Source of the DNA: a virus
Taxonomy: Duplodnaviria; Heunggongvirae; Uroviricota; Caudoviricetes
Direction: 5' to 3' (one strand)
Virus record (IMG/VR): IMGVR_UViG_2537561716_000020
Length of the DNA: 4,181 nt
Part shown: one piece after another, positions 1 through 4,181 of the stretch
Layout: every line of letters starts with the position of its first letter
Position numbering within the stretch: position 1 is the first letter of the stretch
Position numbers: made by a program

Positions 1-3000
1 GCTATGAAGCAGCAAAAGGCGATGTTAATCGCCCTGATCGTCATCTGTTTAATCGTCATAGTGACGGCACTGGTAACGAGGAAAGACCTCTGCGAGGTAC
101 GAATCCGAACCGGCCAGACGGAGGTCGCTGTCTTCACAGCTTACGAACCTGAGGAGTAAGAGACCAGGCGGGGGAGAAATCCCTCGCCACCTCTGATGTG
201 TCAGGCATCCTCAACGCACCCGCACTTAACCCGCTTCGGCGGGTTTTTGTTTTTATTTTCAACGCGTTTGAAGTTCCGGACGGCGCCGGAATAGAATCAA
301 AAATACTTAAGTAGCGCGCAGGGAGAAGAGGGATGGACCCCGAACAGGGGAGTGCTATTTATCTGGAAGGATTCTGTTGATGAGAATCGAAGAATTACGT
401 GAAATTTTTAGTGAAGATGGCCTCTATACTGTGCGCGTTGAGAAGGGCGCTATTGTCAGCCACTGCCGTATTAAATGTTTACAGTCTCAACAAAGGAAGA
501 GTGGAGCTGCGTTAATTCATTTTGTGGATGGGCTTGTGACGGATGGTTTTATTTTGCGTGCAAATGAATTTGTCACATCGTTGCCGTCTCTGAAAGAAGC
601 TGGGATTAAGGCTGGTTTTTCTGCTTTTGAAGATTAGTGAATTCATCTACAATTCAGCGCAGGGCTGAACCCCTGTTGAGTAACACTGTGCCACCGGAGA
701 AAGCCGATGGCGCAAAATTCCAGACTACACAATTCTGATAATTCAGCCGTCTTTGCCAGCAGGCACGGGCGGCGTTCTCATGCATTCAAATCTGACTGGT
801 TCCGGCACGCCCCATGCACTGAAGAACAGGCCGAATGGCTGATTCAGAACTACCGCAGACGTGGGTATGAGTTTAGGAAAGCCCTCAGCCTCGATTATCG
901 TCACTGGATAATCTACGTCAGGCTGCCGTACTCCGAGCGCCCACCGCGTCCGTCCCGCACATTCCAGCAACGCATCTGGAGGTAACGTGCGGGTATTACT
1001 TCGACCTGTTCCGGTACCGGAACTTGGGGTGGTGGTCCTTAAACCAGGCCGTGAATCCATGCAGGTATTCCATAACCCTCGAGTGCTTGTGGAGCCGGAG
1101 CCGAAAAGCATGCGCGGTCTGCCGTCCGGCATCGTCCCTGCCGTTCGCCAGCCGCTGGCGGAGGATAAATCATTACTGCCGTTTTTCAGCAATGAGCGTG
1201 TGATTCGTGCTGTTGGTGGCGCTGGTGCACTGTCTGACTGGCTGTTGCGTCATGTCAAATCCTGCCAGTGGCCTCATGGTGACTATCATCACAGTGAAAC
1301 CGTTATTCACCGTTATGGTACCGGCGCAATGGTGTTGTGCTGGCACTGCGACAACCAGCTGCGTGACCAGACATCCGAATCACTTGAGCAACTTGCTCAC
1401 CAAAACCTGTCAGCATGGATGATTGACGTCATTCGTCACGCAATGAATGGCACACAGGAGCGTGAATTATCGCTGGCTGAATTATCCTGGTGGGCGGCCT
1501 GCAATCAGGTGGTGGATGCACTACCTGAGGCAGTAGCGCGTCGTTCGCTGGGATTACCAGCGGAAAAAATCCGCTCCGTATACCGTGAGAGTGACATCGT
1601 ACCGGGAGAACAGACAGCCATCAGCATACTGAAGCAGCGCACAAAAAATATTGCGCTGCCACTTCACGTCCACCAGCAACAAAATCCACCACAGAAAAAA
1701 ACGGTTGTCAGTATCGCCGTTGATCCGGAGTCTCCTGAATCGTTCATGAGGCGGCCTAAACGTTGCCGCTGGGTTAATGAGAAATACACGCGCTGGGTAA
1801 AGACACAGCCGTGTGCGTGTTGTGGTAAGCCTGCTGACGATCCGCATCACCTGATTGGTCATGGTCAGGGGGGAATGGGGACAAAGGCCCACGATATTTT
1901 CACGCTACCGTTGTGCCGGGAGCACCACAACGAACTTCATGCAGACCCGCTGGAGTTTGAGAAAAAGTACGGCTCTCAGATTGAGTTAATTTTTCGTTTT
2001 CTTGATCACGCCTTTGCGACTGGCGTGCTCGGGTAAAAGAGGTGACTGATGCTCATAGATTTGGTTTTACCTTACCCGCCGACGGTGAACACTTACTGGC
2101 GACGTCGTGGCAGCACATATTTTGTATCAAAAGCCGGTGAGCGTTATCGCCGGGCTGTGGCGCTTATTGTTCGCCAGCAGCGGCTGAAATTAAGCCTGTC
2201 CGGACGGCTGGCAATAAAAATTATTGCAGAACCACCGGATAAGCGCCGCCGTGACCTGGACAACATTCTGAAAGCACCGCTGGATGCGCTGACGCATGCG
2301 GAAGTGCTCATTGATGACGAGCAGTTTGATGAAATCAATATTGTGCGCGGTCAGCCTGTGCCAGGTGGACGGCTGGGCGTGAAGATTTACGAAATCAGAG
2401 GTGGTAACGATGGCGCGTGATATCCAGATGGTTCTTGAGCGATGGGGGGCATGGGCAGCAAATAATCATGAAGATGTAACATGGCCCTCGATAGCTGCTG
2501 GTTTTAAAGGATTAATCCCGACTAAAGTGAAATCACGTCCTAAGTGTTCTGATGATGACGCCATGATAATTTGTGGTTGTATGGCACGATTAAACAAGAA
2601 TAATCAGTATTTGCACGATTTGTTGGTGGATTATTACGTAGGTGGAATGACATTTATGGCTCTTGCACGTAAGCATAGATGTTCTGATGGGCTTATTGGT
2701 AAAAGGCTTTATAAAGCGGAAGGTATTATTGAAGGAATGCTTATGGCTCTGAATGTCCGGTTAGATATGGATATGCGGTAGGGATATATAGTGATGAGGG
2801 TTATGTTTTCTGTGTTTATAATTAACATGTTTATTTTTTGATGGTCATGTATTGTGGAAGGTAGATAAAATGTTGCCTGGTGAATTGAAAATATTGATAA
2901 TCAATCTTCATCATTAAATAAAAGGAGTGCTTATGTGGATTGTGTTAGTACTGTCACTGTCAACTCTCAGTTGGCATAAGGTAGTGGCTTTTTCATTGTT

Positions 3001-4181
3001 GACGGTGTCTGTTGTCCTGGCTGTGCTTAATGATATTATTGATTGGTCGGTGTTATTTTTTGTTGCTACAATCGTTTTTTTTATTATTTTGAAGTTCAAC
3101 TGGAAATATAACGCCTGGGCTAAATCTATATATGAAGTTGGCATAGTTTTATCAGCCATAGCATTATTTTTCCATCTATGGCCAGGGTTTCACAATCCTG
3201 TAGTGCTAAATTCTGTTACTGTTGGCCCTCAAAGTACTCCCTATACAATGTATTTTAATTTTGATAAAGCGCTGGTGCCATTTTTGTTAGTCCTGTGTAC
3301 ATCTTCTTTGTTTAAAAAAGAAGTAAAATCAGAAGTGTCTTTGTGGAAGTGGGGGGCTCTGTCGCTCTCTGTTCCTCTTATCCTGTTTTTGGCTGTTTTT
3401 TTTGGTGGATTAAAGCCAGAGATTCATTTTCCTGAGTGGTTGCCAGAGTTTATATTGGCTAATTTGTTTTTTGTGTCTCTGGCAGAGGAATCATTATTTA
3501 GAGGGTATATTCAATCACGGCTATCAGAAGTAACGTCTCCATTGGTTGCATTAATTGTGGCGGCTTTGTTGTTTGGTTTTTATCACTATTCAGGTGGTGC
3601 TTTACTTGTATTATTTGCCACGTTATCTGGTGTTGTGTATGGATTGTCATGGATGTGGAGTGGGCGTTTGTGGGTTGCCACCCTTTTCCATTTTGGTTTG
3701 AATCTGTGTCACTTGTTATTCTTTACCTATCCATTTTTAAAACATAATTGATTTTTTCTATGGTTTTAAATTTATAAGACTGAAAAATAGCAGGACGTGA
3801 CATTTGCATGAAAAATATGCACGGCAAAGCATTTACGTACGTAAAAAATCAGGTATGCTGTTAAGAGTGGTTATTTCGCCGCATAGCTTGACCCCGCCTC
3901 TGAGCGGGTTTTTTGTGCCCGCAAAGTAGCGCAGTGCGTTAAATGTGCTGGTAGTTATTAATACAGGTCTTTCAGCTTGCTGGCTTTTTCGACAAGAGTT
4001 ATTGGTGTGTCACGTTAACCGGAAAGGGTAAAAAGACATGCTGAAACAGCAGGATATGACAGAAACCGCCAGAGTTGTGTTTGATGAATTAAGCGTCACC
4101 GAACCGGCGACGGTCGGGGAGATTGCGCAGAATACGTACCTTTCACGCGAGCGCTGCCAGTTAATACTGACCCAGCTGGTT

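Follow-up and report, generated by a model that had tools for sequence, protein, structure and literature searches.

The prophage sequence analysed here, a stretch of 4,181 nucleotides from IMG/VR record IMGVR_UViG_2537561716_000020 (hereafter the window), carries at positions 2933–3751 of its plus strand a single gene for a CPBP-family protein. By all sequence and fold criteria that we applied, this protein belongs to the CPBP family (PF02517) and is apparently catalytically competent. Its gene lies between the antiterminator gene Q and a conserved element that appears to be the late promoter PR' served by this type of Q, an arrangement overlooked in the initial annotation of the window. On balance, we think it probable that a promoter of its own drives the gene in the lysogen and that the protein cuts a bacterial polypeptide embedded in, or anchored to, the membrane. 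The gene itself is already known, annotated and once mutated. The new elements are modest: its placement between Q and the inferred late promoter, its recurrence behind two antiterminator families, its chromosomal ancestry and its possible control by Fur.

The open reading frame (ORF) proposed in the initial annotation is indeed intact, running without interruption from ATG 2933 to stop 3751 and encoding 272 amino acids; RefSeq places WP_000265265.1, a "CPBP family intramembrane glutamic endopeptidase", on the same coordinates. A GTG at 2927, two codons upstream, is unlikely to serve as the start because aligned prophage alleles begin with MW. The expected membership in PF02517 (Rce1-like) was borne out by a clear match of 70.6 bits against a cut-off of 22.4 (E=1.4e-19, profile positions 3–92 of 93), well above the curated threshold. 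The three catalytic motifs reported for the protein were also found at their positions and in their order. Conservation was assessed in an alignment of 43 homologues with 47–84% identity, in which the key residues of all three motifs are invariant or at least 90% conserved. The motifs fall within predicted helices spanning residues 170–200, 203–217 and 246–263. Three further conserved motifs (PGFHN, YxNFDKALVPF and ExHxPxW), all outside the catalytic core, are candidate substrate-binding features.

The AlphaFold model generated on the 43-homologue alignment (mean pLDDT 94.2, pTM 0.91) is nearly all helical, with nine helical segments. Mean Kyte–Doolittle values are 1.5–2.4 for most helices, the long catalytic helix (residues 170–200) being the exception at 0.6. 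The model presents a multi-pass membrane fold resembling that of solved CPBP members, and its only clear matches among solved structures were SpdC and MmRce1. A search of PDB chains by sequence, using the 43-sequence profile, returned no match.

Sequence evolution also bears on the intactness of the gene. Prophage alleles, which are 54–97% identical and all full-length, differ with ratios of nonsynonymous to synonymous substitution rates (dN/dS) of 0.10–0.29 and are under purifying selection. The N-terminal helices (residues 1–80) are the fastest-evolving part of these alleles and the catalytic half is the most conserved. Many E. coli O157:H7 chromosomes match positions 2782–4181 of the window at 100% identity, and there the segment belongs to prophage Sp4. 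In strain Sakai the gene is ECs_1085, a "phage CAAX amino terminal protease family protein" in Sp4 beside yccA; a literature search under the locus name ECs1085 found no paper. The O157 prophage is defective: it contains insertion sequence (IS) insertions, and its terminase, portal, capsid or lysis genes are frameshifted or truncated, depending on the strain. Despite this decay the CPBP gene is intact, and it is at least 99% identical in 547 genomes.

Base composition sets the gene apart from its surroundings. G+C content drops from 52–58% to 31–39% between about 2500 and 3900 of the window, and the CPBP gene has 37.7% compared with 52% for positions 1–2400. The gene is thus cargo of foreign base composition, as is typical of a "moron". 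As to the other hallmarks of a moron, namely a promoter and terminator of its own and expression in the lysogen, we found matches that resemble a promoter and a terminator, the fold of the latter being non-significant, and there is a published reverse transcription PCR (RT-PCR) signal from uninduced cultures.

The conserved element lies 80–165 bp after the CPBP stop codon and comprises a palindrome, a promoter-like stretch, an initial-transcribed block and a hairpin followed by a T-run (Table 1). The order Q, CPBP, palindrome holds in all IMG/VR loci and prophages examined that have this Q type. Two related phages lack the CPBP gene and retain the element. In the Stx2 phage P13374, whose Q is 80% identical to that of the window, the element stands directly 3' of Q with the palindrome TTTACGATCGTAAA and no CPBP insert. 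In phage ev207 (Q 85% identical), it follows a reverse-strand porin gene and lies just 5' of the holin gene. If transcription in P13374 starts 7 nt past the −10-like hexamer, the distance to the T-run at 4211–4216 is about 257 nt, and Stx phages are reported to make a terminated PR' transcript of 258 nt (PMC7547250). The two lengths agree, and by homology we regard the element as the likely late promoter PR' together with the Q-utilisation region. The CPBP gene would therefore lie between Q and PR', outside the late operon, and should be expressed independently of Q. We also considered that the gene might belong to the late operon together with stx and rejected this for the present Q lineage, as the gene lies 5' of the conserved promoter element.

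The palindromes of the window (TTTACGTACGTAAA) and of P13374 (locus L016, 3926–3939) differ in their central two bases and both are perfect. The palindrome at the −35 region may be a protein-binding site, possibly for Q, and the block TAAGAGTGGTTA is a possible Q-utilisation or pause region. A hairpin with a T-run occurs at the matching position in most related loci, the Shigella allele L015 being without an obvious GC stem. In the window, this hairpin is likely to form the 3' end of CPBP transcripts.

Upstream of the gene, we identified a candidate sigma-70 promoter and, overlapping its −10 hexamer, a Fur-box-like site (Table 1). The E. albertii allele retains the promoter as TTGTCA-17-GATAAT. 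The Fur-like site of the window matches the Fur consensus at 14 of 19 positions, a score reached by 32 of 2000 shuffled sequences. Salmonella prophage alleles have a 17/19 Fur box just 5' of the gene, a score that none of 2000 shuffles reached; an IS-flanked Salmonella allele scores 15/19 and distant chromosomal homologues at most 11. These matches do no more than suggest control of the CPBP gene by Fur and iron. The placement of the gene upstream of the inferred late promoter, probably with an iron-responsive promoter of its own, predicts expression without prophage induction. Transcripts were detected in uninduced cultures by RT-PCR and as a microarray signal, and on HEp-2 cells the gene rose 2.66-fold and clustered with exbB, chuU and entE; T84 cells caused no induction (PMC2654852).

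Taken as a mechanism, the reading that we favour would run as follows. In the lysogen, the gene would be transcribed from its own sigma-70 promoter, possibly under Fur/iron control, and the transcript would end at the downstream hairpin; after induction, read-through from the early operon would come on top. The site formed by Glu185/Glu186, His218, His253 and Asn257 would cut a membrane-embedded or membrane-anchored bacterial polypeptide. E. coli would thereby gain an envelope-processing activity that other Enterobacterales encode on their chromosomes, and an effect on host STAT-1 signalling, if real, would be indirect. The clear PF02517 match with its intact motifs, the confident structural model, the low dN/dS, the cargo status of the gene, its chromosomal relatives, the expression signal from uninduced cultures, the Fur-like sites and the retention of the gene in defective Sp4 all speak for this reading. 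Several points weigh against it. For the CPBP proteins of this subfamily there is no demonstrated cleavage of any kind, and the wider family includes non-proteases such as SpdC (PMC7387801). The promoter, the Fur site and PR' are deduced from sequence, and when the hairpin and the two intergenic regions were folded as RNA, no terminator signal stood out significantly from shuffled sequences. The recurrence of the gene between antiterminator and lysis genes, behind two unrelated antiterminators, could indicate a role in the phage life cycle rather than a benefit to the host. Finally, the sole recorded phenotype concerns host-cell signalling (PMC2654852), which an envelope protease does not explain.

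We next consider how the gene is distributed. It is present in 574 of 5426 complete E. coli genomes, roughly one in ten, and nearly always as a single copy. The sampled genome rows are mostly O157:H7, O55:H7, O145, O111, O103, O45 or livestock isolates, and mostly serotypes of Shiga toxin-producing and enterohaemorrhagic E. coli (STEC and EHEC), in a collection of complete genomes where O157 is over-represented. Among 50,697 deposited phage genomes searched with tblastn, none carried the gene, two weak Listeria matches being all that was returned; its known occurrences are in prophages and IMG/VR contigs. Alleles from E. coli, E. albertii and Shigella, down to 58% protein identity, are all located 3' of the same Q type. 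Their downstream neighbour varies and may be a TrmB-like ORF, IS66, a small ORF of unknown function or a holin gene, the last directly 3' of CPBP in an E. albertii prophage. The initial annotation saw no partner gene, and this holds across the loci, since only the upstream Q is constant.

A second prophage lineage is found in Salmonella. Its proteins (277–287 amino acids, 55% identity) are encoded after an unrelated antiterminator (PF03589) and before a holin gene. In Salmonella locus L022 (5761–5860 and 6001–6864), the lambda-Q-like antiterminator (PF03589) is separated from the CPBP gene by a promoter-like sequence and a strong terminator, and the annotated CPBP start may be placed 10 codons too far upstream. 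In contrast to the E. coli lineage, the Salmonella lineage thus seems to have the CPBP gene inside its late operon. Given the two antiterminator settings, what the lineages have in common is that the gene lies between antiterminator and lysis genes; its place with respect to the late promoter is not shared.

This recurrence raises the question of whether the protease, made together with Q, tunes lysis by processing holin, antiholin or spanin, or serves some other late membrane event. Its position between antiterminator and lysis genes in two lineages with unrelated antiterminators (PF06530 and PF03589), and directly 5' of a holin gene in E. albertii and Salmonella prophages, would fit such a function. 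However, close phages of the same Q type do without the gene (P13374) or have a porin gene in its place (ev207), none of the 50,697 deposited phage genomes encodes it, and the two lineages place it differently with respect to the inferred late promoter. Moreover, the gene is intact in prophages with broken lysis and head genes. We therefore regard a life-cycle function as very improbable.

Related proteins are far more widespread on chromosomes. Proteins of 269–276 amino acids and about 50% identity are encoded in at least 233 species-representative genomes, from genera that include Providencia, Proteus, Photorhabdus, Xenorhabdus, Serratia, Enterobacter, Pantoea, Dickeya and Cedecea. Chromosomal context was counted in the best 80 of these loci. 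None of the 80 has Q, RusA, DUF968 or a holin gene within 4 kb, and in these loci the G+C content of the gene equals that of its flanks. The homologue adjoins modF in 35 of the 80 loci (Providencia, Photorhabdus, Xenorhabdus, Serratia) and gpmA in 32, and modF–CPBP–gpmA is a fixed, housekeeping-like position in several genera. Five further chromosomal contexts differ from each other and have no partner in common. We considered modF and gpmA as functional partners and rejected them: their recurrence in several genera looks like synteny, and the prophages keep only Q constant. Judged by sequence, the prophage gene descends from a family of chromosomal Enterobacterales genes. In a neighbour-joining tree, built without support values, the prophage alleles group with one chromosomal and one IS-flanked gene, and a single capture by a phage is plausible. 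Two Helicobacter strains, 13S00477-4 (L077) and 13S00482-2 (L126), also encode a protein of about 50% identity, with a G+C content matching the flanks (34–35%). The subfamily is otherwise restricted to Enterobacterales, and the Helicobacter copies could reflect horizontal transfer or contamination.

How do these data bear on a protective role? The initial annotation had put the gene forward as a candidate single-gene determinant of phage exclusion or peptide immunity. Its view of a single-gene, apparently competent CPBP protein stands; neither of these two functions found support. Superinfection exclusion or abortive infection would involve cleavage of an incoming phage membrane protein or of a host inner-membrane entry factor. 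Prophage cargo often protects the lysogen, and retention of the gene in a defective prophage would be in line with this. Porin conversion can change phage receptors, and a porin gene occupies the same slot in ev207. On the other hand, none of the 5027 defence models of PADLOC-DB v2 matched the protein even at E≤1, and its exact PHROG family (13291, 272 positions) is listed as of "unknown function". In other genera the homologues are stable chromosomal genes without phage or defence neighbours. We found no literature that links CPBP proteins with phage defence, and the Pfam name "Abi" itself has been called no longer appropriate in a 2023 preprint (bioRxiv 10.1101/2023.06.07.544157). Exclusion thus appears highly unlikely.

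The second proposal, immunity to a membrane-active bacteriocin or microcin that is degraded or sequestered in the inner membrane, has somewhat more in its favour. Such a mode of action has been put forward for CPBP ("Abi") proteins of Gram-positive bacteriocin loci. Some CPBP genes lie 3' of bacteriocin genes, and self-immunity has been suggested for them (summarised in bioRxiv 10.1101/2023.06.07.544157). The Fur-box-like sites 5' of prophage alleles would allow such immunity to switch on under iron limitation, when toxins that depend on siderophore receptors enter most easily, and the fast evolution of the helices in residues 1–80 would also agree with it. However, in about 15 contexts we found no bacteriocin gene among annotated or Pfam-listed neighbours, small unannotated peptide ORFs not having been screened. 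In prophages the gene is flanked by Q and the inferred late-promoter region; on chromosomes its neighbours are housekeeping genes, namely modF, gpmA, an EAL-domain gene and a permease gene. The fixed modF–CPBP–gpmA position in several genera is atypical of immunity genes, and dN/dS is well below 1 throughout. Peptide immunity is, in our estimate, rather improbable. A broader variant appears slightly more doubtful still. Here, iron limitation in the gut would induce siderophore receptors, and the prophage would then switch on, through Fur, a membrane protease that destroys siderophore-microcins, colicins or the membrane proteins of infecting phages. If this were true, CPBP proteases would add a new class to the prophage-borne immunity or exclusion factors of Gram-negative bacteria.

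The only published phenotype suggests a different role, in virulence. In a lambda-Red deletion mutant, interferon-gamma-induced STAT-1 tyrosine phosphorylation was no longer blocked, and HB101 carrying the CPBP gene showed a partial STAT-1 effect (PMC2654852). EHEC might accordingly need the protease to block STAT-1 phosphorylation in epithelial cells: it could process an exported bacterial factor or, in the proposal of the original authors, be released itself. An orthologue in two STEC strains is contact-regulated, being 3- to 13-fold down in adherent cells (PMC7649339), and the predominance of STEC/EHEC serotypes among the sampled genomes points the same way. However, complementation was only partial and T84 cells did not induce the gene (PMC2654852). 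Release is not plausible for a protein that consists almost wholly of membrane helices, and homologues are common in non-pathogenic Enterobacterales. In addition, CPBP is followed in O157 by a regulator gene and three tRNA genes, ileZ-argN-argO. Since the insertion made for the deletion lies just 5' of the inferred late promoter and adjoins these genes, polar effects on all of them are possible. We consider a virulence function unlikely, if the least so among the alternatives to an envelope protease of the lysogen.

Coordinates of the features discussed are collected in Table 1.

Table 1. Features of the CPBP gene and its surroundings in the 4,181-nt window
Feature	Position	Strand	Basis or remark
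Q antiterminator gene, 126 aa	2401–2781	+	PF06530, E=8.7e-52; sole constant CPBP neighbour
Candidate sigma-70 promoter TTGCCT-17 nt-GATAAT	2873–2901	+	Consensus scan; inferred
Fur-box-like site AATATTGATAATCAATCTT	2890–2908	+	Overlaps −10 hexamer; perfect 6-1-6 inverted repeat ATTGAT-A-ATCAAT (2893–2905)
Shine–Dalgarno AAAGGAG	2921–2927	+	5 nt 5' of ATG; direct sequence reading
Subfamily motif PGFHN, aa 84–88, loop after third helix	3182–3196	+	G85, N88 invariant; P84, F86 at least 90% conserved
Subfamily motif YFNFDKALVPF, aa 107–117	3251–3283	+	Y107, N109, D111, K112, A113, P116, F117 invariant
Subfamily motif EIHFPEW, aa 163–169, loop before catalytic helix	3419–3439	+	E163, H165, P167, W169 invariant
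CPBP motif 1, EExxxR = EESLFRGY, aa 185–192	3485–3508	+	E185, E186, R190 invariant (43 homologues)
CPBP motif 2, FxxxH = FGFYHY, aa 214–219	3572–3589	+	F214, H218 invariant (43 homologues)
CPBP motif HxxxN = HFGLN, aa 253–257	3689–3703	+	H253 invariant, N257 at least 90% conserved
Inferred PR' of this Q family	3832–3859	+	Palindrome, 16-nt spacer, −10-like TATGCT (3854–3859)
14-bp perfect palindrome TTTACGTACGTAAA	3832–3845	+	Includes −35-like TTTACG; part of inferred PR'
Initial-transcribed block TAAGAGTGGTTA	3862–3873	+	At most 2 mismatches, same relative place in all related loci
GC hairpin CCCGCCTCTGAGCGGG then T6, terminator-like	3893–3914	+	Terminator scan

The rest of the window conforms to the enterobacterial lambdoid prophage setting recognised in the initial annotation. 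The gene order is hok (4–159), two small ORFs, DUF968 (987–2036), RusA (2049–2420), Q (2401–2781) and CPBP. Among complete E. coli genomes there is no full-length 100% match of the whole window; the best whole-window match, 96.4%, is from O55:H7 and contains an indel of about 1.8 kb, so that the left end of the window represents a variant of the O157 arrangement. Within the first 1000 positions, the ORF at 4–159 encodes a Hok/Gef-family toxin (PF01848, E=7e-22), and the O157 hokD position projects to 384–539, inside an 86-aa ORF at 377–637 (PHROG 340). An Rfam scan of the window detected only an isrK-like match near hok at 168–249, which is sub-threshold (24.9 bits versus a gathering score of 50). 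At the end of this stretch, around 229–248, a GC-rich inverted repeat and a T-run can be seen by eye. A related prophage with the same Q–CPBP module (L012, 1068–3612) has, between DUF977 and hok, a cassette of three genes with the Pfam domains CTD10, MC6 and DUF2326. This cassette, which is unrelated to the CPBP gene, may serve in conflict or defence.

At the right end, positions 4039–4181 cover the beginning of an ORF for a TrmB-like regulator. It is the first gene past the inferred late promoter and, according to RefSeq, is frameshifted in O157. We rejected this ORF as a downstream partner of CPBP: the promoter/hairpin element intervenes, the ORF is frameshifted in O157 and it is replaced elsewhere. 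The TrmB-like segment has 83–89% DNA identity to a stretch that follows a different Q (47% identical) in phiP27-like and some Stx2a phages. Because it follows a different Q there, the sequence beyond about 3860 resembles a recombination module of its own.

What, then, is the significance of the gene? It is present in about one in ten complete E. coli genomes, is kept intact in a decayed prophage, and has been linked by one report to suppression of host interferon signalling. Given the possible polar effects of the published deletion, clean genetics combined with proteomics could settle an old and weakly supported virulence claim, and a clean test could provide the first function for a Gram-negative stand-alone CPBP protease.

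Among known systems, two are structural matches to the prophage protein. The type II CAAX prenyl endopeptidase MmRce1 (Rce1; PDB 4CAD) matches the model in structure at an identity of only about 17%, and relative to it the prophage subfamily adds the invariant motifs PGFHN, YxNFDKALVPF and ExHxPxW in its N-terminal half. To our knowledge, a prenylated CAAX substrate is not to be expected in E. coli. SpdC (LyrA) of S. aureus (PDB 6U0O, chain A; 13% identity) is a further structural match. It is without key catalytic residues and works with SagB as a non-proteolytic partner (PMC7387801), whereas the prophage protein retains all catalytic residues. Myxosortases and related CPBP sorting enzymes (NCBIfam MrtP, MrtC, MrtS and MrtJ) were the best NCBIfam matches and have the CPBP catalytic core in common with our protein. 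Membership was rejected, as the best scores were 46, 33, 31 and 30 bits against cut-offs of 435, 250, 130 and 100. For CPBP ("Abi") proteins of bacteriocin self-immunity, a place in or beside a bacteriocin structural or export locus would be expected, and none was seen among the annotated or Pfam-listed neighbours of the gene studied here.

As a piece of prophage cargo, the CPBP gene also has parallels. The Q type and the promoter element are common to P13374, which has no insert between them, and to ev207, which has the porin gene instead, in the same slot between the same type of Q and the conserved promoter element. In P13374, stx2 lies 3' of the inferred late promoter and terminator, whereas the CPBP gene lies 5' of that promoter. 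The stx1 promoter is iron-regulated and, like stx1, the CPBP gene may have a Fur-controlled promoter of its own.

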